A DNA stretch of 64,000 bases, from the NCBI GenBank assembly GCA_001938485.1, contig MQRK01231274.1, forward strand, positions 9,981 through 73,980, read 5' to 3'. This document shows positions 24,488-60,147 of this stretch, piece by piece (within the stretch, counting starts at the first letter, position 1; the number at the start of each line of letters is the position of its first letter). The DNA is from Girardia tigrina. Taxonomy: Eukaryota. A program made the translations under genes and the position numbers. Under the pieces are notes generated by a model. That model worked only from the letters and a program-made list of their open reading frames with translations. It had not been told where the DNA came from and did no database searches.

Positions 24488-25011
24488 CTTTATCACAAAT
24501 TTTAACTAAACATTTTGCATACTTAAGTGTGAATGGTGCTACAGCTTCTATACTGTGCACTGAGTCTTCATCTTCACAAGTTCAATAGTCATCAGAATTG
24601 TAAGTTTTTCTGTAATAGTCTTTTTGATTTCAAACTAATAGTTTTTTTTTTATTCTGTGTCGTATTACAATGAAATCACTTATCATTTATTAAGACAATG
24701 TGTGTCACCTTGGAAGCCCCTTTTCAACATACTTCAGAGAACATATTGAAAGACACCTGCTGAGATTGTGGAAAAGGTTCTGAAGTGACGAGAGTCACCG
24801 ATATCGATCACGTAAATTATCGCGTCCGCCCGCTCAAACGTGTCACCCAAGGACTCCGACTGTTCGATAATTTCAATTTCGATTTGAACGAATTTGAACT
24901 GTTTCGTTAAAACGAGTTTATTCGGTATATTTTCATATCCGCATTTCGGATCGGGAAATTCCGAATAAAGTGGCAGATCTTTCGCTTGTACTTTCATGCG
25001 AGGTCGTTCTC
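24488..25011 (-). pseudogene. Spliced, disabled atypical Ras-superfamily GTPase-like gene fragment
   Basis: FERADAIIYVIDIGD, a frameshift into SSLQNL, a 54-nt GT-AG intron, then LLV*NQKD (G4-like, probably GGA>TGA). No P-loop seen. Confidence 0.45.
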
Positions 25012-25329
25012 TGTCGAAATCAATTGGAATTCGAAAATAAAAAATGTGAGAATCAATTTGTGCAATAAAAAAATTCAAAAGATATCAATTAATTTATTTT
25101 CCGCTTAAATTTTCCGTACAAAGCTTCTATTATTAAAACAACACAAAATTATCTATTAACAGTTTTCGATCATTAAAAAATCAATTTTTAAATTTTTAAT
25201 TGAATTAAAAAGAATTTTTTTAATGTAAATCTGGATTTTTCTCAGCTCAAAGATTTCAGGGGTCGCAAATCCAATTGAGGCATTTTTAATAATTAAAAAT
25301 AAAAAAAATAAGTTAAATATCACATAGGA

Positions 25330-27045
25330 AAACTCTTAATTGGTTGCTGCTGCTCATACAATTTAGTGAATACTACATCAGCCCCCTTTTTGAGATGCGG
25401 TGACATCATGGTTATACGCTGTAGGCTTAATAGGAATGGCAAAAGAGGTATCAGATATTTGAACCCAAGGTGCGAATGTGACACTGCGTTTCGCTATATG
25501 ATTGACAGGAATGTCGCAGTTGTCATCATCAACGCCGTAACGGAAGTGGAAGATGCAAGTGGGGACGATTTCCAATTTGGATTTGTCGCACCTCCACTCG
25601 CAGCCTGGCTGATACTTGTGTGAGTCTTTACCAAATTTCTTGTGGAACCAGCACACCTTGCTGTTTGCGCTTTGTGATCGGTTCCGTCCTGGCGATTTAT
25701 TTCTGCTCGATGATCTGGCTTTATGATTGCTGGTGGATCCGTTCTTCTCGATGTTTTCGAGCCGCGTCTGCAAACTGGATAGTATTAACGTAATACTCGC
25801 AATCTGCGTGAGCATGTCTGCATTTTGTGTTTCAGGTGCGCGTACTGTGACAGAGCTCGGAACAGGCTGGGTGCTGACCTGAAAACAACTGCTCTCATTC
25901 GATTACTGAGTAAGCCAGATGTTGTCGGCTACGAGTGCCAGAGTCGGAAACTCCTGATTTTCCATGCCAGCCAAGATAGCTTGAGTAATTGGTGGCAATG
26001 ATTTGAGGAAAAATGTCGACAGGATTTTGTTCGTGGGGTCCTGTGCTAATCCAGATTGGATCTTCTCCAATTCATTGGTGACCCGATTCAGGAACTTAGA
26101 TGACTTATTTGGACCGAGGACTTGCGTCTTGAACTACGCCGCAAATGTGTCCTCGAAAGACGGCTCATGGGCGGCCAGAATGATCCGGCGAAGTTTTTCA
26201 TATGGCTTCTGATGCTGGTACAAATGATCGGTGTGCCTGTGCCCCACTTGCATTAGTTACGCCGGTAAGATCACCAGAGTATTGAGGAAGAGAGTTGACT
26301 GTGCAGTGATGCGCTGCATTTTGAACCGCATGTCGACCACACTCAACCATTCCTTCGGTGATCCATCACTGTCACTGAAATACGCCGGTGGGGAATATTC
26401 GCAGTGATCGCACTGATACTCGGCTCTGAATCGTCGACGGGAGGTGGATATATCCCTGTATTCGATCCCCGCGAAGATTCATGTGCACGATGACACATGC
26501 ATGATCTCCTACCCTTTAAACACAAAACTATTTGGGGCGTTGATCCGTTTTGGGTGTTGTAGTCACCGAGACATCTCCGGTCCTCTAACTGCTTCCTCCG
26601 AAGATGAGTCGTTGTTGGCTTGGTGGAATGCCTTCTTTGATCTGGATCTTCGCCTTGACGTCCACGATTGAATTGTCAGGATCCACATATAGCGTGATCG
26701 CCTTCCCCGATAGTGTTCTGATAAAGAACTTCCGGATATGGCCGGACTCTGATCCGTGCTCTGAGTGTATGTTGTTTGAAATTCGACTTTCATTTTTATT
26801 TTTATTTTGGAATTTTGAATATGTGAACCCGACAAACAGACTCCCGCCAAACAATTTCCAGCCAGACTCACATACATATGCAACATTTAACGAACCTTGC
26901 GGGGTGAGTCGCTCCCGGGTGCTGGGTCCATTCTTTGAACGGGCGACCCGTCACTCAACACTCGCAAAGATTATTTATACAACTGTGATGCAAGAGCGTG
27001 TGCAGCGCGGCTGCAGCACCCTGTAGTCGGGGGAATAAAAAACTA
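25330..27045 (-). mobile_element. pol-less Gypsy-type LTR element encoding a decayed ubiquitin-Gag fusion
   Basis: On the minus strand: LTR end ...GACTACA at 27022, PBS-like GGTGCTG, ubiquitin domain 26734-26508, then Gag (PKEWL...F...IT, PYEKLR, VLGPNKSS, FLKSLP...QAILA, LVADNI, knuckle CWFHKKFG...GC). PPT AAAAAGGGGG follows, then the 3' LTR start TGTAGT at 25377. Confidence 0.85.
26508..26734 (-). pseudogene. Diverged ubiquitin domain (76 codons, one 1-nt deletion)
   Basis: [76 protein letters not shown]; 47/76 identical to ubiquitin by manual alignment. Confidence 0.93.
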
Positions 27046-27052
27046 TCTAACT

Positions 27053-27720
27053 CTATAAATTTTCTAGAGCTGCTGATGATCGATCCACGGCTCCTTCACA
27101 TTCACAATAGACCCATATTTCATTGGGAATTCCATTTTGCATCCGCCATACTGGAGCTTTTTCTATATTTTCGATAGCTTTAATAGATGTTTGAAGCATT
27201 TCCGTATTAACTTTAAGCATTGATCTATTTAAAGAGCGCATCATTAATAAAGTAGAAAATCCTTCCGCTAATCCATGAGAATTTATCCGCTCATTAAATT
27301 GGTTGGCACTAATCATCCAATCAACTAAATTTAATATCATTCTTGAAAAATAGCAGCTGGCCACAGAAATTCTAATCAGTCCCGAAGGAGTTTGTACAGA
27401 CTCACTAATTGCCGCAAAAACAAAAAAAACGTCTGTCTGTTTTCAAAATGTGATTCGATAGTAAGCAAATGAGTGATCAAAAGATCGATCCAAAATGTAA
27501 AAAGCTGTTTAGGTAGATCAAACAATGACCATAATACAGACGGTACTTCTATCCATCCTGCAGCATGATGGTTGAAATTTATAACAACAAATAGATCTGC
27601 TAGAATATCTGAGACTACTTTTGGTAAAACTACGCAAACACTGACTATTTTGTACAGTTCGTCATAAATTTTTTCGTACAGTGAGTGAATTAAAAGGAAT
27701 AAAATATTTAATATCACTTC
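27053..27720 (-). pseudogene. Unidentified helical-protein coding fragment with a probable frameshift
   Basis: Adjacent ORFs 27376-27774 and 27053-27364; possible TTTAG acceptor near 27721. Confidence 0.3.
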
Positions 27721-28934
27721 ACTAAATTTACAATGATCAATGTATAAGTAATATGTTAAAGCGAAGATAAACATTTGAAACTTCTAATTAATCAACATAA
27801 AAACAGAATGTTTATATAATGTGTCAAATTATTTCGTAGACACAAAATATTGAAATTAAGAGGCACTGTAAAATTAATATTTGATTCGATCTGTTCTACT
27901 ACAGATTACGACTGCAGAGTTTCATTATAGGTAATGCTTTGTTTTTCATTATTTCAATATATTTTTCAGAATTTAGTCGTCCTTTAATAAATTCATATGA
28001 CATCAGACCGTTTGATAACACCATAGCCCAAATCATTAATCCAGGAGATTTCAAAATTTTTTTAATTCACCTCGGACTGCTTCCAATGGTCTTCCAACAA
28101 TAAAAAGAGTCCCAACAATTTGTTGGGACCAGTGAGTTTTTCCTTCACATTAGCCTCGGGCCTATTCATTGCACCGGCACCGAGGCAGGCGAAGGAAAAA
28201 CTCCCTAAATCTAACAAACGAAAAATAAAATATTATAATGATAATTTATAATTAATTAATTAAAAAATAGAAACTTTTAATTGGTTTTGACCCTTGGATC
28301 CTGTCGATTTGAATATTTTCTTGTGAGAATTTGATGGCCTGATTTGCTGACGTGGGTTTGATCGGAATTTTGGTCATCTCCGGGTTGTTTCTATCTGAGG
28401 ACTGTTGACTTAGTGATGGATGATTGAAGGTTGACTGTGAGAATTGTCTGCTTGCTGGTTCTGTGAGTTTTTGTGACAAAAGATTGATATAAATTCATCT
28501 GAATTTGTGCACTTGATCAGACTTTTTTTCTTTGAATAAATTTTATTTAAAGTACCCTTGTTTTGTACTTAGGTAATTTTTGGATTTTATTTCCTTTTTT
28601 TGAAGTTGATGGAGGTTGGGGAGCATCCTCAAGGCTGCCGATCTGTCGATAGATAACAGTAGGGGCTTATAGTTCCTGCCGAGACTATTGACGATCAGGT
28701 AGGGAATATGAACAGGTTGTGAGGTAATTTGATGGCTGCCGATCCGTTAATATATTAACGACAGGTGCTTATAGTGCCTGCCGAGACTATTGACGATCTG
28801 GAAGTTTGAGAAAGTCCTTGCCAAGTTTCATTTCTAGAAGAGAATTCGTTTCTCTCAGCCTCCATCAATTATTTTTTTTGCTTGTTTTCTTTTTAATTTT
28901 TTTATTTGTAATCTACTCATCGTCCATATTTAGC

Positions 28935-29519
28935 ATGAATAGAAAATATAACGAAAGCAAAGAGCAACAAAGAGAACTACTGTTGGAGTTGCAGAAATGG
29001 AAAGGAGAATGTGCCAAGCTGAATGACGAATTGGCGAAGAGGACAACCGAATTTGAGGACTACAGAAATCATTCGGTTCCTCTATCAATTCATAAACCGG
29101 TTGTGGACAAATATTTGTTAGGACAACAAAAAATAAAGGCCTTGCAAAACGAGGTCACCGAGATGAGAATTCAGCAAAATATGTCCAACTACTACAAGAA
29201 GGTGATCGAAAAGGTCTCAGAAGAGCAACCGGAAATAATTCTAGTAACAGCAAGCAAGATTCGATCAAATACGGAAAAGAAACCTCTGATGACGAATCCA
29301 AACATTTATGGGTCAATTATGAAAGAGGATATGGCATCATCTTCCTCTGGGGTGCTCAGCAGATCTCAGAAGCGACGGGAACAGAGGAAGCGAAAGGCTC
29401 AAATGTTTCAACAGGCCAAGAATAAGCTGCAAGCTGTTTTTAAAACCAGTCGTATTGAGGTTGACGTCCAAGATGGAAAGACGGTAATCAGAAATGATAC
29501 CAGTCAAAGAGAGTTCTGA
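28935..29519 (+). CDS. Orphan 194-aa coiled-coil protein with an Arg-rich motif (SRSQKRREQRKRK)
   Basis: Uninterrupted ORF; the ATG sits directly after a polypyrimidine tract and TTTAG|C acceptor. Confidence 0.7.
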   Translation: MNRKYNESKEQQRELLLELQKWKGECAKLNDELAKRTTEFEDYRNHSVPLSIHKPVVDKYLLGQQKIKALQNEVTEMRIQQNMSNYYKKVIEKVSEEQPEIILVTASKIRSNTEKKPLMTNPNIYGSIMKEDMASSSSGVLSRSQKRREQRKRKAQMFQQAKNKLQAVFKTSRIEVDVQDGKTVIRNDTSQREF

Positions 29520-29733
29520 TTTCGATACCTCGCATCAAATTTGTTGTTTTTTTCAAACAAATAATTTCCAAGAGACTATGGAACAACAAGAATGGCTGGA
29601 CTTTAAGTCAAAACTTAAATTCAGAAGGAGAATCGTGACCGCCTACAGTTCCGCTCTATCAAAACTGGTAAAGAGTTTGTCAATCTATCAGATTTGGATG
29701 ATTAGAGACGATGAGTGGATTGCCTTTGATTAG
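29494..29733 (+). CDS. Orphan 79-aa protein overlapping ORF1 by 26 nt
   Basis: Uninterrupted ORF followed by AATAAA at about 29755 and a T-rich downstream element. Confidence 0.5.
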   Translation: MIPVKESSDFDTSHQICCFFQTNNFQETMEQQEWLDFKSKLKFRRRIVTAYSSALSKLVKSLSIYQIWMIRDDEWIAFD

Positions 29734-31275
29734 CATTTTCTTTTGTTATATTTTAATAAAACAATGTCAGCGTATAATTTGTTCATGTTCTTTTAACTTT
29801 AATCTCTGATATGAAAATGATAAACTCATAATATAGTAATCAAATAAAAAAAGACATGTTGATGAAAACATAAGATAATCAGTAATTAAATAGAAGTAGC
29901 ATAAGCCAACTTTCATAGACTTAATATATTTAAATATTATGTAGAACCAAATAGGTACTTCATCAACTTCACTGGCGAGATCAAAGGGCCAGATGGGGTT
30001 GATGGGGTACGATATGGATCTCTAATAAGTGTTAGTTAGAGACACTTTTAGCGGAGAGACATATCTAAATAATATGTTGGGTCAAAATAAACTCAGATGC
30101 TAAAGCATACCATGAAACACATAAATTTAAATTAATAAAATTAAGATAATAGTATAAAATCCAGTACTAATAATATCACACCCAACAAATTTAAAGTGAA
30201 CATTTTCTCATCGGAAAATATGACATTAACCGAATTCATACTTGACAGAAGATGTTCTTTGGCAATGCTTTTTCTTAATGATTTCGTATTATGTGGCAAA
30301 TAAAACTTTCGTTTCACATTTTCATAACTATAATCTACAGACCTTAGGTATCTGCTAACTGTTGCTTTGGATGCTTTTAAGTGAAGCGTCTTAATTAAAT
30401 CCATTGATGAACACTTTTCATTTGCGTCAGTGTCTTTGAAGTTCGGTTATCATATGACGTCCATCATTTTTGGTAATTTTTGGTTTTGGTACTGACTTCT
30501 TCGGTTTGCCTTTATTTTTCACCATGTATTCTATAGTTGATTGTTGAATTTTATTTTTTTTGCTAATTTCTCTTAATGTCATACCCCTTTATCTGTTTTT
30601 TAAAATGCTGCATTTTTAGATTTCGTCATACTAAAAATGTTATAAAAAATTATTTATTTAACTTTAATAATAAAAATTCATACTATATTTTGATATTTTG
30701 TATATATAACTTAAAAAATTATAAATGTATGAAAAAATTTGTTACACTTATTTAAATTATTTGAAAATTTGAATATTGGTAACATTAAATAGTCAAAGTG
30801 ATGTATTTAAACAAATACATATTTTTAAAGGTTTTTATATTTAATGTTTGTTTGTTTAAAATTGGAGCGGTTGTTTGTTGAACGTACGAATATATAATCC
30901 CGATTAGAAAACTTGTCACTGCGAAGTTATAGGTGAAGATCTGTGCTTCGACTGGCAAATCGAGAACCAAGCAAAGACCAGGAAGATTAGCAATTCCATA
31001 AGGCAAGGCCAACACTTGTTTGGACATTAAATCAAAATATTGAACGAAGATCCACCACAGACAATATTTAAGAGGTAGAATTAGAACAATCGAGGCACTT
31101 TTGAATTGTGAATAAATTGGATAAAGTCAACCCAATAAATCTCCATCGGCTCACGTAAGATTGATTATCAAAATTAGAAAGAACTCACTTTGATGAAATT
31201 ATTTCGACATTCGAATTTGAAAAATTGTCAGCTTCGTTTAATCTTAGCAAAATTAAAAGATATTGGTTATATCCC

Positions 31276-32647
31276 TGTGAGGAATATTTGAATGTTTGAT
31301 GTTTTGTGTTTGAAGGTTTTTATATTTAATTGGTTTTTATTTAATTAATTAGTTTTTTATTTAAATGGCATATCCTGATTTTGCCAAAGACTTCATTCTT
31401 GATACAGATGCAAGTTTTGATACGATAGGGGCGGTGTTATCACAGAAAGACGAATGTGGACGAGAAAGGGTGATTGCGTATGGATCACATAAAATGAATA
31501 AACATGAACTAGGTTATTGCATTACAAGGAAAGAACTACTTGCAATTTATTATTTCACACTGCATTTTAAACATTTCTTGTATGGAAAAAGATTTTTGTT
31601 GCGAACAGATCATAAATCTATTACGTTTATGATGACTACAAAGAACCCTATCACACCACAGTTCCAAACATGGATAAATTTTCTGAGTAGTCTTAACATG
31701 AAAATGGAATATCGAAAAGGTGAAAAACATTCAAATGCTGATGCAATGTCAAGAAATTCGTGCGAACTATGCAATCAGTGTCAAACAATGCATGAAGAGA
31801 CCAAGAAAGGAAAGATTAAAACAAGAATACTGGCATTAAGTGAAGAATCAGATGGTTTTAAATGGCAGAAGAATAAGAATGAAATAAAACAAATAATCGA
31901 GGACATAAGTAAAGGTAAAACAAGAAAATGGGCATTAAAGAATGATATCGTCATAAATCAAGATAATAAGTACTGGATCCCAAAGGCAGAACGAGAAAAT
32001 TTTATTGAAGAAATGCACAAATTGTTGTGTCATGCAGGTTGTAAAAAGGTCTATAACTACCTCCGAGATGATTTTGACATGGAAAATATGAGAATTTATA
32101 AAAGACATAGTTCAAAGTTGCATAAATTTTAAATAAATTTTTTATTTTAAATTTGGTATGTTGAAATTGGTTTGTTGAATTTTGTATGCTAAGTTTAGTA
32201 TTTGGAAATGTGTTTCTCGCACCCAGATGGAAAATTGATATTTTGGATGTTCACGATCGATAATTATTCGAATATAATTTACATTTTAAAGTACAGCATA
32301 AGATATTTAAAAACACTAAAAATATTAAATCATTTCAAATTTTCATATTAAAATTTAAATAAAATAAATAGTTTTAACTAAGTTTTGAATTAAATAAATG
32401 TTCCTTTTTTCAATAAAATATTTTTTAAATAAAATTAATACTAAAATTACCAAATTTGAACTGTAAAAATAAAATCTGAAAATAATGAAAAATTTGTTTG
32501 AATAATTGTTTATTAACAAACATTAACAAAAAAGTTATCAATTTAGAACGATGTCGAATTACGAGATTTTTGCTGAGAATTGTCCAAAAGACAATTCTGA
32601 CTGTATTGAAAATAAAAGTTTGAAAACCCATGTTGGTGTTCTTAATA
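31276..32647 (+). mobile_element. Internally deleted Gypsy copy B (LTR stub, RNase H/integrase start, 3' LTR)
   Basis: LTR start TGTGAGGAATA; ORF 31365-32132 (LDTDASFDTIGAVLSQ, RKELLAI, RTDHK, NADAMSR, H....H.G); LTR about 32146-32647 ending GGTGTTCTTAATA. Confidence 0.92.
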
Positions 32648-43500: not shown

Positions 43501-46500
43501 CTATTTCATCACGTTTCAAATTAAAATCTTTTGAGTTTAGAGATAAAAACATTTTTATAAGGAATAAGGTATTCTAGCAAAAAAGGGTTCCTTTATTTTT
43601 CAAGGAAAGATTTAGAATATCCATTTTGATTCATGGAATTTCGTTTATCAATACTGTTCAAAGATTTTATAAAATATATTCTGGAAATGCAAGGTTAATA
43701 TAATATAATCCAGTGGTCTTGAACCTCGAAGCATAGAGCATAGAATTACGTGTGAAAGTTGTGATTTATACTATTGACGAATAAACGCTGATTAAACTAT
43801 ATTTATAGTTTATTAAACTTTAATAATTTATGATTTTTATAATTTATTCATTATTGATAGATAAGATAATTTTTGATGCATTATCCATGCTTATTATCCA
43901 CAACATTTCCAAAAATTTGTTACCTTTGAAAGCGAAACAGTATCAAAATCCTAAATAAATTGAGAAATAAGTCGCCATGGAAAAAAGTTGAGAATTGCAC
44001 ATTATATTATAACCGTTAAAAATGACTATATATATTTTAATTATGTTTTGTTCATTTTTAAATTCAATCTTATTAGGTTGTTCGATATGAAACGGGTCAA
44101 ACTTCACACCTTACATTTCAATCGCGTATAACTTAACTTTGAACTATCGTATGAAAATAAATAAGGTATTTCTTGACAGATATANNNNNNNNNNNNNNNN
44201 NNNNNNNNNNNNNNNNNNNNNNNNNNNNNNNNNNNNNNNNNNNNNNNNNNNNNNNNNNNNNNNNNNNNNNNNNNNNNNNNNNNNNNNNNNNNNNNNNNNN
44301 NNNNNNNNNNNNNNNNNNNNNNNNNNNNNNNNNNNNNNNNNNNNNNNNNNNNNNNNNNNNNNNNNNNNNNNNNNNNNNNNNNNNNNNNNNNNNNNNNNNN
44401 NNNNNNNNNNNNNNNNNNNNNNNNNNNNNNNNNNNNNNNNNNNNNNNNNNNNNNNNNNNNNNNNNNNNNNNNNNNNNNNNNNNNNNNNNNNNNNNNNNNN
44501 NNNNNNNNNNNNNNNNNNNNNNNNNNNNNNNNNNNNNNNNNNNNNNNNNNNNNNNNNNNNNNNNNNNNNNNNNNNNNNNNNNNNNNNNNNNNNNNNNNNN
44601 NNNNNNNNNNNNNNNNNNNNNNNNNNNNNNNNNNNNNNNNNNNNNNNNNNNNNNNNNNNNNNNNNNNNNNNNNNNNNNNNNNNNNNNNNNNNNNNNNNNN
44701 NNNNNNNNNNNNNNNNNNNNNNNNNNNNNNNNNNNNNNNNNNNNNNNNNNNNNNNNNNNNNNNNNNNNNNNNNNNNNNNNNNNNNNNNNNNNNNNNNNNN
44801 NNNNNNNNNNNNNNNNNNNNNNNNNNNNNNNNNNNNNNNNNNNNNNNNNNNNNNNNNNNNNNNNNNNNNNNNNNNNNNNNNNNNNNNNNNNNNNNNNNNN
44901 NNNNNNNNNNNNNNNNNNNNNNNNNNNNNNNNNNNNNNNNNNNNNNNNNNNNNNNNNNNNNNNNNNNNNNNNNNNNNNNNNNNNNNNNNNNNTTTTATAC
45001 TAAAGGGTTAAATGTGTTACCATTGAAATGGCAACAGTGTGTTGACAACATGGGGGATATTTTGATTAAAAATAAAATGTTATTATTTAAAAAAAATCGA
45101 TTTACATTTTATTTTAATTTTGACCCGTTTCATATCGAACAACCTAATATTTTACTCTGTCACTGGAGTCTATTGAATAATATTCATGACAATGACATTT
45201 AAATATATCAGATTTATAAGATATATTTACATATGAAAGATCATGTGAAGGAAGCTATTACAAGTGTGCAGTATACTTATGTATAGAATATACATTAAGT
45301 AAACAGTACTTTTCGGTATCGAAATTCGAGAAAGCACTGTATCAACTGATGATTATTATATTACATGAAATCCAAGTCTATCTACCCCTGGAAAATTGGA
45401 ACGCTATTTCAGAGTGCATTATTACACAAAATATTTCCCAGCAACATAGGCTTTATAAAAATGAATTTTTGATAAGAGGAAATTTTATAATATTCATTCT
45501 CGCTTTTGATTACTTTACGAATCCATTTTCGTTCTGAAAGGATGTGAAATATCTGATTTGCATTCTTGAAATTTCTATCTTTAGTTCCAATATCCGAAGA
45601 TATCACCGTAAAATTTTCCGAGACTAAATATTTTTATTCGAATCATGTGAGGTTTTGGGGGTCTCTCATTTCAGACAACTAATTTCAACTATATTAAACA
45701 ATCCAGTGTTTCTTATTTTTCTATTTTGTAGGAACTGACATTGCTTCTTTTATCGTAATCATTAGACGAGACGCTGTATTATTGAATATTTAATCATATC
45801 TTACTGGATATTTAAAAGTCTCCAAATCATCTAAATAAGTCCAAATACACGTTACTACTTTTGTAATCACATTAGGTGTAGAGTGTTATACACTTCTTAT
45901 GTAGGCGAACAACTGCGCAAGTAACATTGATTATAGTGTTTATTATATTTTTTGTGTATAATATTAGGTTGGTCGAAAAATAATGGCGGTTTTGGGATAC
46001 AAACTTCAAAGAAGTGCAAATTCACAGAAATAAAAGTTTATTAATCAAAGTATGAACCGTTGGCATCAATACATTTTTGACAACGAGAAACAAGTTGTTT
46101 TATTCCATCAGCATAAAATGCATCGGTTCTCGAAGCGACGAATTCTTGGANNNNNNNNNNNNNNNNNNNNNNNNNNNNNNNNNNNNNNNNNNNNNNNNNN
46201 NNNNNNNNNNNNNNNNNNNNNNNNNNNNNNNNNNNNNNNNNNNNNNNNNNNNNNNNNNNNNNNNNNNNNNNNNNNNNNNNNNNNNNNNNNNNNNNNNNNN
46301 NNNNNNNNNNNNNNNNNNNNNNNNNNNNNNNNNNNNNNNNNNNNNNNNNNNNNNNNNNNNNNNNNNNNNNNNNNNNNNNNNNNNNNNNNNNNNNNNNNNN
46401 NNNNNNNNNNNNNNNNNNNNNNNNNNNNNNNNNNNNNNNNNNNNNNNNNNNNNNNNNNNNNNNNNNNNNNNNNNNNNNNNNNNNNNNNNNNNNNNNNNNN

Positions 46501-49500
46501 NNNNNNNNNNNNNNNNNNNNNNNNNNNNNNNNNNNNNNNNNNNNNNNNNNNNNNNNNNNNNNNNNNNNNNNNNNNNNNNNNNNNNNNNNNNNNNNNNNNN
46601 NNNNNNNNNNNNNNNNNNNNNNNNNNNNNNNNNNNNNNNNNNNNNNNNNNNNNNNNNNNNNNNNNNNNNNNAGCGTCGGTTCTTTTGATTTTCATTCAAA
46701 TAATGTGGAACCCATTTATCAAGTTTCTTGATTTTTCCAAGTTGTTTTAAATGATCCAGGACTGTTGAATGACTAATGCCCAACCCATCTTCCAGTTCTC
46801 TGATTGTTGTACGGGGATCTGTTTCCACCATTGTCCTCAAATTGTCGTTGTTCACAGAAACTGGACGACCACGACCTTCTTCATCTTCAAGGTTTTCATC
46901 TCCATCAGAAAATTTTCGGTACCATCGTTGCACTGTGCGCTCAGAGGCTGTTCCCTTACCAAATGCTTTTTTGATATTGCGAGCCGTTTCTGCTGCTTTA
47001 CGACCCAGTTTAAATTCGTACAAGAATTTTGCTCGAATTTTAATTTTTTTCCATCATTAATTTAGCACTGTAAATATTCTAAAAAATAACAGCAATATGT
47101 TAATAATGGCTATAGGAATATACAGCTAGGCATAAGATTTCAAATAATATCTAACACTAATGCATTTAAACTTATATACATATCAAAGTAGATAAACAAA
47201 GTATAAAGCTCAAAAACCACCATTATTTTTCGACCAACCTAATATAAATTTCATTTAAAATTGTAAAACACGATTCTTGTCGGATATTTATTCAAAATCC
47301 CGTTGATATTGCCGTTATTGTCGCTATACCTCCCGGATATATTCAAAGTAACAATAACCTTCAAAAACCGTAAACATTAATCTTTGTCTTCGTCTCCAGT
47401 AATGATAGCAGATAAAACATGGGTTATTCATTGAAGTGTGTACTTATTGTTTGGGAGTTGTCTTTAAGTTATTCATATCAAAATGCTGATTTGATCTACT
47501 TTTGTTTTGTACATTTAATTAGCAAGATCAGTTAATTAAATGAAGATTGCAGAATATGGTTTAATTATATATTTTATTGCAATGGTTTTTTTAAGTGGCA
47601 TCAGTTTTATTTTGAAGTGGTTCTTCATTGAAGTATTTTATTGTTTCACGAAGAATGTCATTTATATATTTTATTGTTAGTTTTGCCAGTTGTCTGGATC
47701 AAGTATTGATTCTGTAAACGATGTTATTTTATTAAATTGGATATTTGGTTGATTCGCAGATCTATTTTATTGGTATAACTACATATATATCATTTGATTA
47801 CTTTCAAAAATTTTAATCATATTTTAATAATAAAGTATTACTTTCTGAGATTTTTATTAATGTTAACTAGGACATCATATCTGTAGTAGAAGGTTATAAT
47901 ACCTTAAGAATTGTAAAATGTTCTTCTTATTTTCCAATTTTCCTTTCAAAAAAGTAAATATATGTATTTATGGGAATCAGGTTTTATCATATTTACAACC
48001 AGATCATTTAAAATGTGATCAAATATTCGTTGTCTCCGGACGTCTGAAGTTACTTTATAGTCATTGATCTTCTTTAGATAGATGGATGTTCAAGAAAATG
48101 TTCTGAAAAGTCATAACTTCAAAAGGTAGTAGTAAAACTAAAGGATTGTAATGGAACAGAATGAATGGGTAAATATTTCAACACCACCTAATGAATACCA
48201 TAAACGAAATATTATTTGATTACTATGGAAAAATCTGATTTTATATTATAAATATTTATTTATTTCAGAAAAAAGGAGAGAAGGCCCAGGACCGATTGTT
48301 TTTGCAAGCCGCATCGCAAATTGATTATGATAGTTGGGTTAATAATATTGAGAGTATTATTACTTCTAAAAGTAAAAGGACTGAGGTTGTATTGTATTTT
48401 ATTTATTTATTAAATTTATATTCTATCATGTAGTCTAATAAAGTGACTGATGACAAAAAGACGAACGATTCCAAAGGTTCTCCAAGTCCAACCGTTAAGA
48501 TTACTGAAGAAAAAAGGACGAACGATTCTAAAGTTACTCCAAGTCCAACAGTTAAAAGCCCTCCGTATAGATCTTCATTTAAAATTGTAATCATTAATTT
48601 GAATAATATAATTACTTTTTATGAATAATTATTTTAATTGGAATCATTACAGTGCCGTGTATATATATATTTAATATATCTATCTGTATCTATGTAAAAC
48701 ACGTCTTTTATCTTAAAACACAAATTATCTTAATGATTATTAGTTTTGTCTTTTAAGAGGATGACACGAAAAACATTTCCTATCAAAATTCTAGTTGACA
48801 TATACTCACACAAGACTTTTCGAAAGGTAATTTCGTATCACTGACTTCTTATTTTTGTGATCCAACTTTGGTTTTTTTTAAAAAAATAAAGATAACTGGT
48901 GTTGTCATAATGGGCTATGTTAAAAGCACTGGTACAATTACAATGCAAACATTTAATAATATCACATTCATAGTCACAACAACTCTCGGAAATTCTTTCA
49001 CCATTTGTCATCTTTCTGAATTTTTAATAATAATTATTCGAAGAAATTTCCTAATTTTCAGTAACATTAATTTTTAATTTAATTTTAAAATATTTTATAT
49101 AATTATAAAAATAATTAAACTAATTTAAGAAAAATTTTCAAATCTCTAAAAAATATTAAACTGGATTTATCGTGCATAATTGTTAAAGAAGACTGCTGAC
49201 TAATTTTGACCCCTTTTTCTATGAAACGAATATATACCTATGTATTGGATGTTGTGCCTTGGTTGACACCATGAAAGTTCATTGTCACAATTACATGAAT
49301 TTTTTATCGGCAATTATACATCTAATTTATGGCGGCTGGTGATGATTTTCCTTTTCTGACTTAGGGATGGAATAAATCCACTTCTCATCTGTAGCAACAA
49401 CCCTTCCGTTCAGCTTCTTCAAAATTTTCTGCGCACCTTTTACTTGTGCTCTCTTCTGACTTTCATGCTTTCATTTAAGGTATGAGCTTCTTCAAAATTT

Positions 49501-57337: not shown

Positions 57338-59645
57338 TGTGAGGAATATTTGGTGTGTGGATGTTTTTGTGTAGTTTTTGTATGTCCAAATGTTTTATGT
57401 TGATTTGGGATTGTGCCTCTCCTAACCAGATGGATTATCAATATTTAATTTTTATAATCTGAAACTAATTTATTTAAAGTTAGATTTAATATTCAAATTT
57501 TTAGTTTTTATTATTACACGTTTTAAATAATTTTAATGATTTTATTTTTGTAAATTTTTAAATAATTAAAATCAAATTAATGTTTAAAAATAACTATAAA
57601 AATATTTTATTTCAGCCAATAAAATTTAAAGGAAATATCTTTAAATAAAATAAATTTCTCAAGTTAGTTCAGATTATGATGGGAGATATTGAAAATTGAT
57701 TGATGGATTCTAGTGAAAGCATTACTGTTAATCATCATAAAGATGATAAAAATTGTGAATATAATAAATGTTCTGTCAAATGTGTGAGTTCTCTTAACAT
57801 GGCGACTTCGCACCACGTGACTCCGAACATCAAAGATCCAGAAACATTCGATGGATCCGAGCACAAGTTAGAAGAATTCTTAATAAGTTTTAACAGGTAT
57901 TCAAAGATTATGGGATTATCAAAGGAGAGAAAAATCCTACTGGTAACACCCTACCTGACTCCAGATGCGATTCTGAGATACGAGAAGGCCCCAGGGAGTA
58001 CNNNNNNNNNNNNNNNNNNNNNNNNNNNNNNNNNNNNNNNNNNNNNNNNNNNNNNNNNNNNNNNNNNNNNNNNNNNNNNNNNNNNNNNNNNNNNNNNNNN
58101 NNNNNNNNNNNNNNNNNNNNNNNNNNNNNNNNNNNNNNNNNNNNNNNNNNNNNNNNNNNNNNNNNNNNNNNNNNNNNNNNNNNNNNNNNNNNNNNNNNNN
58201 NNNNNNNNNNNNNNNNNNNNNNNNNNNNNNNNNNNNNNNNNNNNNNNNNNNNNNNNNNNNNNNNNNNNNNNNNNNNNNNNNNNNNNNNNNNNNNNNNNNN
58301 NNNNNNNNNNNNNNNNNNNNNNNNNNNNNNNNNNNNNNNNNNNNNNNNNNNNNNNNNNNNNNNNNNNNNNNNNNNNNNNNNNNNNNNNNNNNNNNNNNNN
58401 NNNNNNNNNNNNNNNNNNNNNNNNNNNNNNNNNNNNNNNNNNNNNNNNNNNNNNNNNNNNNNNNNNNNNNNNNNNNNNNNNNNNNNNNNNNNNNNNNNNN
58501 NNNNNNNNNNNNNNNNNNNNNNNNNNNNNNNNNNNNNNNNNNNNNNNNNNNNNNNNNNNNNNNNNNNNNNNNNNNNNNNNNNNNNNNNNNNNNNNNNNNN
58601 NNNNNNNNNNNNNNNNNNNNNNNNNNNNNNNNNNNNNNNNNNNNNNNNNNNNNNNNNNNNNNNNNNNNNNNNNNNNNNNNNNNNNNNNNNNNNNNNNNNN
58701 NNNNNNNNNNNNNNNNNNNNNNNNNNNNNNNNNNNNNNNNNNNNNNNNNNNNNNNNNNNNNNNNNNNNNNNNNNNNNNNNNNNNNTCATTAGAAACCCAA
58801 TGTAAATGTATGTTTGATTGTATGTATGATTGTGTGTGTGATTGTATGTTTGATTTTACGGATGGAAATATTCCTCAAGAGATGTGCGAACTTGAATGCG
58901 AAGAAATTGTAAATCGAGAACAGTGTAATAGTATAACAACTCAAGATGATAAGAAACAAAATGGTAAAACGGAAATATTGAAGACATCAAAGTTTAAGAT
59001 AAATTATAAAGAATTGAAAGGACGTCCATGTGTGGATTTTTACGTGAAAGATAGAAAAGTTCATTGCCTTTTGGACACTGGAGCAAGAGTAAATGTAATT
59101 AAAGNNNNNNNNNNNNNNNNNNNNNNNNNNNNNNNNNNNNNNNNNNNNNAAAAAACGTATCCATTGCGCAAATGATTCAGAACTGATCAATTATGGAATC
59201 GTTCAATTAAATGTGGCTATTGAGGGAACACAAAAGTTAATAGAATTTTATGTGGTTAAAGAACTAGATTCTAAACAACTAAATTCTAAACAACTAGATT
59301 CTATGCCATGCTGGTAGTAAAAAGGTTTATAACTATTTGAAAGATGATTTTGATATGGTTAATATGAGAGAGATAATTAAGGAAATTATAAAATGTTGCA
59401 TAAACTGTCAAAAAAGAAAGACTTTAACNNNNNNNNNNNNNNNNNNNNNNNNNNNNNNNNNNNNNGATGAACCATTTCAAAAACTGTATATGGATTTTTG
59501 CGGACCATTTAAAAAGACTTTAAATGGATATCAATATATATTAGCTATAATTGATCAATTTAGCAGGTATATAAGTCTAAATGCTGTAATTCATCAAGAT
59601 GAGAAAACTACTCGGAAGGTACTACTGGACAGATGGATTTGGACC
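57338..59645 (+). mobile_element. Gypsy copy C: LTR, gag, protease, then integrase (RT/RNase H deleted; gaps)
   Basis: LTR 57338-57799 (TG...CA), PBS TGGCGAC, gag, LLDTGA, integrase CHAG...C..CQK...PFQKLYMDFCGP...IDQFSRY. Confidence 0.92.
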
Positions 59646-60147
59646 AAAATATTCTTAATCTAATATTCTTCTTTATTTCTTTTCAAATTTCTATTTTTAT
59701 TTAATATTAAAAAATTCAAATTTATTGAAAAAAAAGAAATTTAAAAAATCTAATTATTGGAAATTAGATAAATTTAAAAAAATTTTTAGAAAGTTATATT
59801 TTTAAAATTTTGAAATTCTGTAATAATAAAATAAATTATAATTAGTCTGCGGTGAAAATCAAATTTATAAAAATTTTGGATTGTTGATGATTATATTATT
59901 TGAATTCAAATCCAGACAAGGACTTCATTGTCTTGAGTTGTCGTGTGTGTGTGAATTCTTTGCCGAGCCATCGTACAGGTAAATAAGAATTATGAGTCGA
60001 CTGGCATGCTCTGATTGGTGAACGAAACAGAGCGAGTTAAAATTATCAAGTGATTTTTAAATGAACAGTTTTTAAACTGAATTTTTTAAACAGTTTTGGA
60101 CACTGAAGTTTGCGACCAATTTGTTTGGAATTAACGATTTAAAAAAG

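Follow-up and report, generated by a model that had tools for sequence, protein, structure and literature searches.

Ubiquitin fused in frame before Gag in BEL/Pao retrotransposons of Girardia tigrina, and a one-off chimera with a Gypsy gag

Introduction

Ubiquitin is among the most invariant of proteins, and the cleavage of ubiquitin fusions by deubiquitinases after Gly-Gly is established. In cytopathic pestiviruses (BVDV Osloss, CP1 and CP Rit), captured host ubiquitin lies directly before a polyprotein product and acts as a processing signal, functional even without its first three residues and with Met1 dispensable; host hydrolases yield the exact N-terminus, and this cleavage has been shown (PMC8310069). 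The arrangement described here from BEL/Pao retrotransposons of Girardia tigrina is similar, a predicted folded ubiquitin that ends in Gly-Gly standing in frame directly before the product, yet its cleavage is deduced from sequence. Moreover, the pestivirus insertions are sporadic recombinants that free NS3 in an RNA virus (PMC8310069), whereas here the fusion is fixed across deeply diverged endogenous lineages.

Engineered retroviral Gag-ubiquitin fusions also join ubiquitin to Gag, but these are artificial and meant to stay attached (PMC3751857), while the natural fusion precedes Gag and keeps the cleavage motif. The giant element Burro of planarians is likewise an LTR element with host-like polyprotein domains, one of them Ubi2/SUMO-like (PF11976); it differs in being a Gypsy element of 25-30 kb whose domain is internal, behind an N-terminal Gag, and the available text of that report states no cleavage role (PMC6431247). 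In LTR-mediated retroposition, pieces of spliced host mRNA are joined to LTR elements, with template switching in the model, and the host piece takes the place of internal coding sequence (Tan et al. 2016; PMC5131818); here, host pieces lie inside the LTR, in both LTRs, and spread with it. In general, the fixation of extra domains has been called rare (PMC9289625).

With other BEL/Pao elements (Belpaoviridae), the family shares the domain order DUF1759-DUF1758-RT-Peptidase_A17-integrase-DUF5641, TG..CA LTRs and 5-bp duplications, a placement based on domains, their order and LTRs, the tree being one of Gag with unnamed library proteins. It differs from them in the ubiquitin-Gly-Gly in frame before Gag, in a frame that is open through U5 and the primer site, and in LTRs that hold 5′ pieces of host mRNAs. 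No report of a ubiquitin-Gag BEL/Pao fusion was found in the literature consulted, in part as excerpts (outside Repbase, Dfam, GyDB, most subscription papers and supplements); the fusion is apparently undescribed, although prior annotation is possible.

Results

The locus examined lies in a 64,000-nt stretch of G. tigrina DNA (the window; its positions are prefixed w), for which an initial annotation had described an LTR retroelement with ubiquitin fused to a Gypsy Gag. The locus is almost certainly a dead chimera, in which a Gypsy gag has been joined, as a one-off, to the 5′ portion of a BEL/Pao element (Table 1). The full 76-codon ubiquitin unit of that annotation is indeed present on the minus strand (w26734-26508), with a Pfam ubiquitin match of E 7e-13 for its first piece and 46/76 identities (29/47 plus 17/29) to this genome's own ubiquitin. 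Its tail reads VLCLKGR as first seen, with no Gly-Gly; the proposed derivation from VLRLRGG by three transitions falls away, since CLK also occurs in Pao copies L003-L005, which represent a single sequence found in three contigs, and the Pao/Gypsy junction falls within the last codon. The position w27022, formerly read as an LTR end with a PBS-like site, is inside the U5 of a Pao LTR ending at w26986 (U5 assigned by comparison with Pao copies), and a search allowing up to four substitutions found no Pao primer site in the shortened leader. The downstream part of this LTR matches 10 loci at 82-93%, five of which reach the same U5 end without a primer site, and its open frames match no Pfam family above cut-off; the upstream part is continuous with it at w27654 in L128-L137 and is here parted from it by a later insertion.

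Table 1. Parts of the window locus, with positions in the window.
Feature	Position	Strand	Remarks
Pao LTR, upstream part	30891..31275	-	86-91% match to LTR copies L128-L137
Other repeats between the two Pao LTR parts	27655..30890	.	about 3.2 kb; TA at both sides
Pao LTR, downstream part	26986..27654	-	host-like open frames, then conserved U5; CA end at w26986
Shortened Pao leader	26735..26985	-	70-88% matches to Pao copies
Diverged Pao ubiquitin unit	26512..26734	-	without Met1; frame break near w26595
Pao/Gypsy junction	26507..26511	-	about 3 nt common to both families
Gypsy leader end and gag	25529..26509	-	89-93% identity to 29 sisters
Gypsy internal 3′ end with polypurine tract (inferred), after pol deletion	25378..25528	-	
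Incomplete Gypsy LTR, with no relation to the Pao LTR at the 5′ side	24778..25377	-	matches the sisters' 5′ LTR

On the Gypsy side, the supposed linker of about 30 aa is the family's own leader and Gag start. The gag has its ATG at w26482, a frame break near w26390 and stops at w26259, 26136 and 25905; its CWFH..FG knuckle is present at w25653, with the third Cys lost, as is the PPT/LTR start (w25391-25373), and the PPAY motif, already seen to overlap a generic Gag motif, is a native Gypsy Gag motif. DUF7041 is weak (E 0.039 in the window; E 4.5e-4, below cut-off, in sister L036). At w25529 pol is deleted: the sisters run on into protease and RT, and the window jumps to the PPT, through a 3′ end that has no match among the fetched loci and a high summed depth in DNA runs X1 and X2. 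Beyond the two 1-nt corrections once thought to restore one frame, there are also three stops and the pol deletion, and a single frame needs a spacing unlike that of 19/27 sisters. No repeat joins the two ends of the locus, which in itself is ordinary repeat debris. Further Pao 3′-end pieces (from the region before the PPT) lie in opposite orientations at w33690-33847 and w30824-30891, and other retroelement- or transposase-like remnants were seen by eye at w5687-11146, 31365-32132, 46100-47053 and 57700-59663.

At least 40 scored relatives of the window gag were found at 86-93% identity. Among the 29 Gypsy sisters fetched, 28 begin matching at w26505-26511 and one at w26477, upstream of which the sisters have their own leader and LTR, and a ubiquitin motif occurs in none of the 29. 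When searched with 161 nt spanning the junction, only the window gave a full match (1 of 40 scored matches, from 84 candidates); the other 39 cover one side only, ending or beginning at the junction, with an overlap at query positions 92-94. Thus, at the sensitivity of this search, which scored 40 of 84 candidates, the assembly contains no ubiquitin-Gypsy family, and the Gypsy family first proposed gives way to a unique junction. With the spacing of 19/27 sisters, the ubiquitin frame and that of the Gypsy ATG, which lies 43 nt from the L71 codon, do not coincide; the first spacing difference needed for a single frame sets the window apart from 19/27 sisters and is shared with 6/27.

Single contigs bridge the junction in X1 (w26358-27030) and X2 (w26467-27023), which come from one study, possibly the assembly's source, and are not independent samples; run X3 gave one read. 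An assembly artefact at the junction is unlikely on this count, the bridging contigs perhaps being the source data. A ubiquitin retrocopy with poly(A) or a target duplication of its own was also rejected, the flank being Pao leader and LTR. Reverse transcription gives matching LTRs, and the LTRs here are mismatched (Pao at the 5′ side, Gypsy at the 3′ side); a DNA deletion between nested or neighbouring elements is thus the likely origin of the join. A CX2HX9CX3C knuckle, found in 27/29 sisters, is that of CsRn1-like Gypsy elements (PMC2582038); unlike CsRn1, this family lacks a tRNA-Trp-type primer motif (0/29 sisters; another TGG motif in 20/29), so it is called CsRn1-like only, and it lacks ubiquitin. 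Sister L037 carries a CUX1_N piece in its LTR region (858-1253; E 7e-20); host 5′ capture is therefore not limited to the Pao family.

In untruncated loci matching the window ubiquitin, the sequence passes from Gly-Gly into a helical region and then into DUF1759. With one natural ubiquitin-Gag piece as the query, 2282 first-look candidates were obtained, and nearly all of the 150 matches listed cover both parts. Ubiquitin and DUF1759 share one stop-free frame in 10 of the 29 frames scanned, from loci picked for long frames, and L224 has a 1178-aa frame that runs from an HSP90 piece through ubiquitin and Gag into RT. DUF1759, DUF1758 and Peptidase_A17 belong to the features of BEL/Pao elements; here, DUF1759 Gag, DUF1758 protease, RT, Peptidase_A17, integrase and DUF5641 were found in order, and the order Gag-PR-RT-RH-IN was seen in L108, L155 and L159, open end to end in no copy. 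Paired TG..CA LTRs, a primer site, a PPT and 5-bp target duplications are present in L159, with the whole plan LTR-PBS-Ub-DUF1759-CCHC-RT-Peptidase_A17-rve-PPT-LTR, and in L248, which supplies a second LTR pair. The BEL/Pao ubiquitin-Gag fusion is genuine and under selection.

One zf-CCHC knuckle was seen in L159 and CCCH fingers in other lineages. The primer site was present in 61 of 98 copies examined, mostly 570-1050 nt before Gly-Gly; its primer is presumably the initiator-Met tRNA, a label based on a consensus, and ARAGORN found no tRNA gene in 15 loci that carry the primer complement. In L149, the primer complement lies after a tRNA-like stretch with a CAT anticodon and before CCA and the U5 end, an arrangement that would suit over-copying of the primer. 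In further Gag lineages Met directly follows Gly-Gly, suggesting that ubiquitin was joined to Gag at the point where Gag originally began. Some Pao copies (L155, L204 and L206; L108-L117) hold two ubiquitin units, or a unit tail ending in GS or GN before a full unit, as would be expected if the source was a polyubiquitin. Ser19, a residue also found in near-host element copies, is present in many host di- and tri-ubiquitin genes (L193-L212). In L209 and L210, a Gag-like stretch with a CCHC knuckle, from another retroelement, is fused to ubiquitin plus a partial diverged unit; in L122, the Pao Gag breaks off early, and an aminopeptidase M1 piece and then U5 follow.

A quick Gag tree of 168 rows places all 29 ubiquitin-labelled rows in one 34-row clade (SH-aLRT 99), the label of P0125 resting on a ubiquitin tail remnant only. 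The five unlabelled rows of the clade start inside Gag and so cannot show ubiquitin, and the six label changes counted are owing to them; ubiquitin was found in none of the 134 Gag rows outside the clade. The tree left out 8 of 31 picked loci (no unbroken piece). A single old capture of ubiquitin is likely on this topology. Among the 151 library proteins, six match ubiquitin and four have both Pfam domains; P0122, P0123 and P0124 resemble families in this genome, and P0128 reaches no more than 43% identity with any of the 150 places scored here. A protein search with ubiquitin included was dominated by polyubiquitins, a search of longer proteins with Gag alone yielded a single Pao protein, which lacks ubiquitin, and DUF1759 clusters at 0.79 in the ESM Atlas are a lead only.

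Across 38 copies, the dN/dS of ubiquitin is 0.15-0.40, similar to that of Gag, and the ratio of non-synonymous to synonymous changes is 128/116 for variants shared by at least two copies and 161/26 for singletons (p 4e-14); together these indicate purifying selection on ubiquitin. In the Cys74 lineage the shared (4/5) and singleton (23/21) ratios do not differ. The earlier proposal that the ubiquitin evolved under selection inside its element therefore stands for BEL/Pao, where selection is purifying and the unit is in frame to Gag, and fails for Gypsy. By subfamily, with tail residues playing no part in the picking of copies, the residues kept were G75 and G76 (13/13 each), L73 and R72 (12/13 each), R74 and K63 (8/13 each), H68 (7/13), K6 (5/12) and M1 (2/12); in the binding patch, L8 is kept in 8/12 and I44 and V70 in 9/13 each, the changes being mostly hydrophobic. 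Met1 is present in near-host subfamilies (25 of 60 copies). R74 is replaced by C in one large subfamily and by Q, K, P or N in others, and one whole lineage has the tail LRLCGG. The residue after Gly-Gly is S in seven, M in four and I in two subfamilies.

Both Gly codons are nearly always GGA, that of G75 in 88 of 102 copies, while other Gly codons vary; homogenisation at the DNA level may thus add to the invariance of Gly-Gly. The element ubiquitin has drifted to about half identity (about 40/76). For a diverged copy, structure prediction gave a ubiquitin fold at 1.1 A from 1UBQ and, before three predicted helices, a low-confidence linker at residues 74-84 across Gly-Gly. Synonymous sites are saturated against the host di-ubiquitin gene L193 (pS 0.81-0.95), the sole host copy compared, which rules out that the element ubiquitin was refreshed from it recently.

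As most subfamilies have lost Met1, translation would have to begin further upstream. Of 52 copies, 27 have the primer site in the reading frame of ubiquitin (p 0.004), and 21 of 42 do when long-frame picks are removed (p 0.019); among position-picked copies alone the count is not significant (11 of 24, p 0.14). After the primer site, 122 stops were counted in the ubiquitin frame, as against 290 and 314 in the other two. Overall this signal is modest: frames agree in four of five subfamilies with a clear majority, and the ubiquitin-matching frame is the majority in 19 of 34 LTR clusters; in three large subfamilies one common frame is kept although leaders range from 512 to 719 nt. Several leaders have in-frame Met codons a short distance before ubiquitin. 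In 16 matched pairs (non-independent, with leaders selected for an open frame), pN/pS is 0.94 for the leader and 0.49 for both ubiquitin and Gag, at equal pS for leader and ubiquitin. A frame that is kept while its sequence is free is as expected of a translated, discarded leader. The leader-ubiquitin module has been swapped between Gag lineages (L089/L173 and L108/L109), with leaders 93-96% identical and Gag pS of 0.82 and 0.49. An HSP90 fragment lies in frame in the leader before ubiquitin in L224, L226, L228 and L120.

Upstream of a short conserved U5 the LTRs differ, often with host-like frames that start at Met. By Pfam, these pieces resemble phosphatase, PRS7, Vac14, PRMT, MAP65, cyclophilin, coatomer epsilon, DCB, tubulin, HR1 and 14-3-3, in the LTRs of L103, L108, L109, L111, L124, L125, L158, L162, L164, L171, L174, L233 and L236, some with two. 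A PP1-like piece is present in both LTRs of L159, and a host piece in both of L190. The Vac14-like piece matches the host gene at 91-96% without its two GT..AG introns and so derives from a spliced host mRNA (splicing being shown for this one piece); it has spread with the LTR (40 candidates scored). No amino-acid constraint was found in the captured PP1-like (pN/pS 0.97) and tubulin-like (0.81) frames, and one pair of the Vac14-like piece gave 0.36. The L248 LTR pair has no evident host piece, and the Gypsy LTR piece comes without ubiquitin; capture and ubiquitin are thus not strictly coupled.

Discussion

The reading favoured here, to which we give a probability of about two in three, is that a BEL/Pao family carries host ubiquitin in frame before Gag-Pol, that deubiquitinases likely cut after its Gly-Gly, and that the window holds a one-off join. 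Translation of the element RNA would begin at an AUG further upstream, in many cases one taken from a host mRNA and lying in the LTR, and would continue through leader and ubiquitin into Gag-Pol; host USP/UCH deubiquitinases would then cut after Gly-Gly and free a Gag with a fixed Ser or Met start. The leader would be translated, disposable, variable and partly host-derived, the benefit being a tolerance of constant change in LTR and leader, and host pieces would plausibly enter LTRs by template switching. Cleavage by host deubiquitinases is quite probably the selected function of the ubiquitin; the odds that translation starts in the LTR are common appear about even. More tentatively, the lineage may have handed translation initiation to its host, its LTRs capturing the 5′ ends of spliced mRNAs for a borrowed AUG, with ubiquitin as a universal cut mark that frees an invariant Gag-Pol and the ubiquitin-Gag boundary as a swap point.

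Of the three roles offered in the initial annotation, the cleavable leader fits best and ESCRT recruitment poorly, because conservation is stronger at the cut site than in the binding patch and neither env nor a late-domain motif is present. A ubiquitin that stays attached to Gag and draws in ESCRT, or else further ubiquitin-binding proteins, to aid assembly or release has a precedent in engineered Gag-ubiquitin fusions, which restore HIV-1 and EIAV release (PMC3751857), and it would agree with the hydrophobic patch residues retained in most subfamilies. It is nevertheless improbable: Gly-Gly is kept in all 13 subfamilies, better than the patch or H68, and five Pao copies reaching the PPT have no room for env; PPxY, PTAP and YPxL occur in 0/60 Pao copies (first 110 Gag codons), and it is established that deubiquitinases cut at an intact Gly-Gly within a flexible linker. 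The ubiquitin might instead be cleaved but chiefly help initiation or folding, much as it does when fused to ribosomal proteins, with translation starting at or just before it and the open leader incidental. The near-host subfamilies with Met1, the in-frame Met codons shortly upstream and the weak frame signal in unbiased picks would suit this version, which we consider unlikely, though less so than the ESCRT role, given that Met1 persists in so few subfamilies (2/12) and that one frame is depleted of stops from the primer site on, despite the differing leader lengths in three large subfamilies.

Were the ubiquitin a passenger kept by repeated template switching, its junction conserved as DNA or RNA and not as protein, the near-invariant GGA GGA codons and the exchange of modules at the ubiquitin-Gag boundary would be accounted for; the reading is very improbable, as an amino-acid constraint like Gag's (the dN/dS largely refutes it) and the synonymous saturation against L193, which excludes recent refresh from that gene, both stand against it. 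Scarcely credible is a Gypsy family with ubiquitin-fused Gag that was active as such. Its join does exist in DNA and sits at the end of a ubiquitin unit, and the first spacing difference needed for a single frame occurs in six of 27 sisters, but no second copy was found among the matches scored, the 29 sisters are devoid of ubiquitin, and the locus has mismatched LTRs and lacks a primer site, pol and Gly-Gly.

With the cleavable leader as the favoured role, an element ubiquitin at about half identity, under selection in many independent lineages, amounts to a natural scan of what deubiquitinases need of a substrate: Gly-Gly and the core must stay, and Met1, Arg74, Lys63 and Lys6 may go. If this is true, the family would be the retrotransposon parallel to the pestivirus insertions, fixed where those are sporadic, and maturation of the element would require a host protease besides its own. 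By way of the LTR captures, the 5′ ends and start codons of host genes could be duplicated and shuffled en masse. In the U3 of L111, L116, L117 and L155, common GGCGCAAAAA-type and CCAAT motifs, which we liken to cell-cycle promoter sites, lie upstream of the host pieces.
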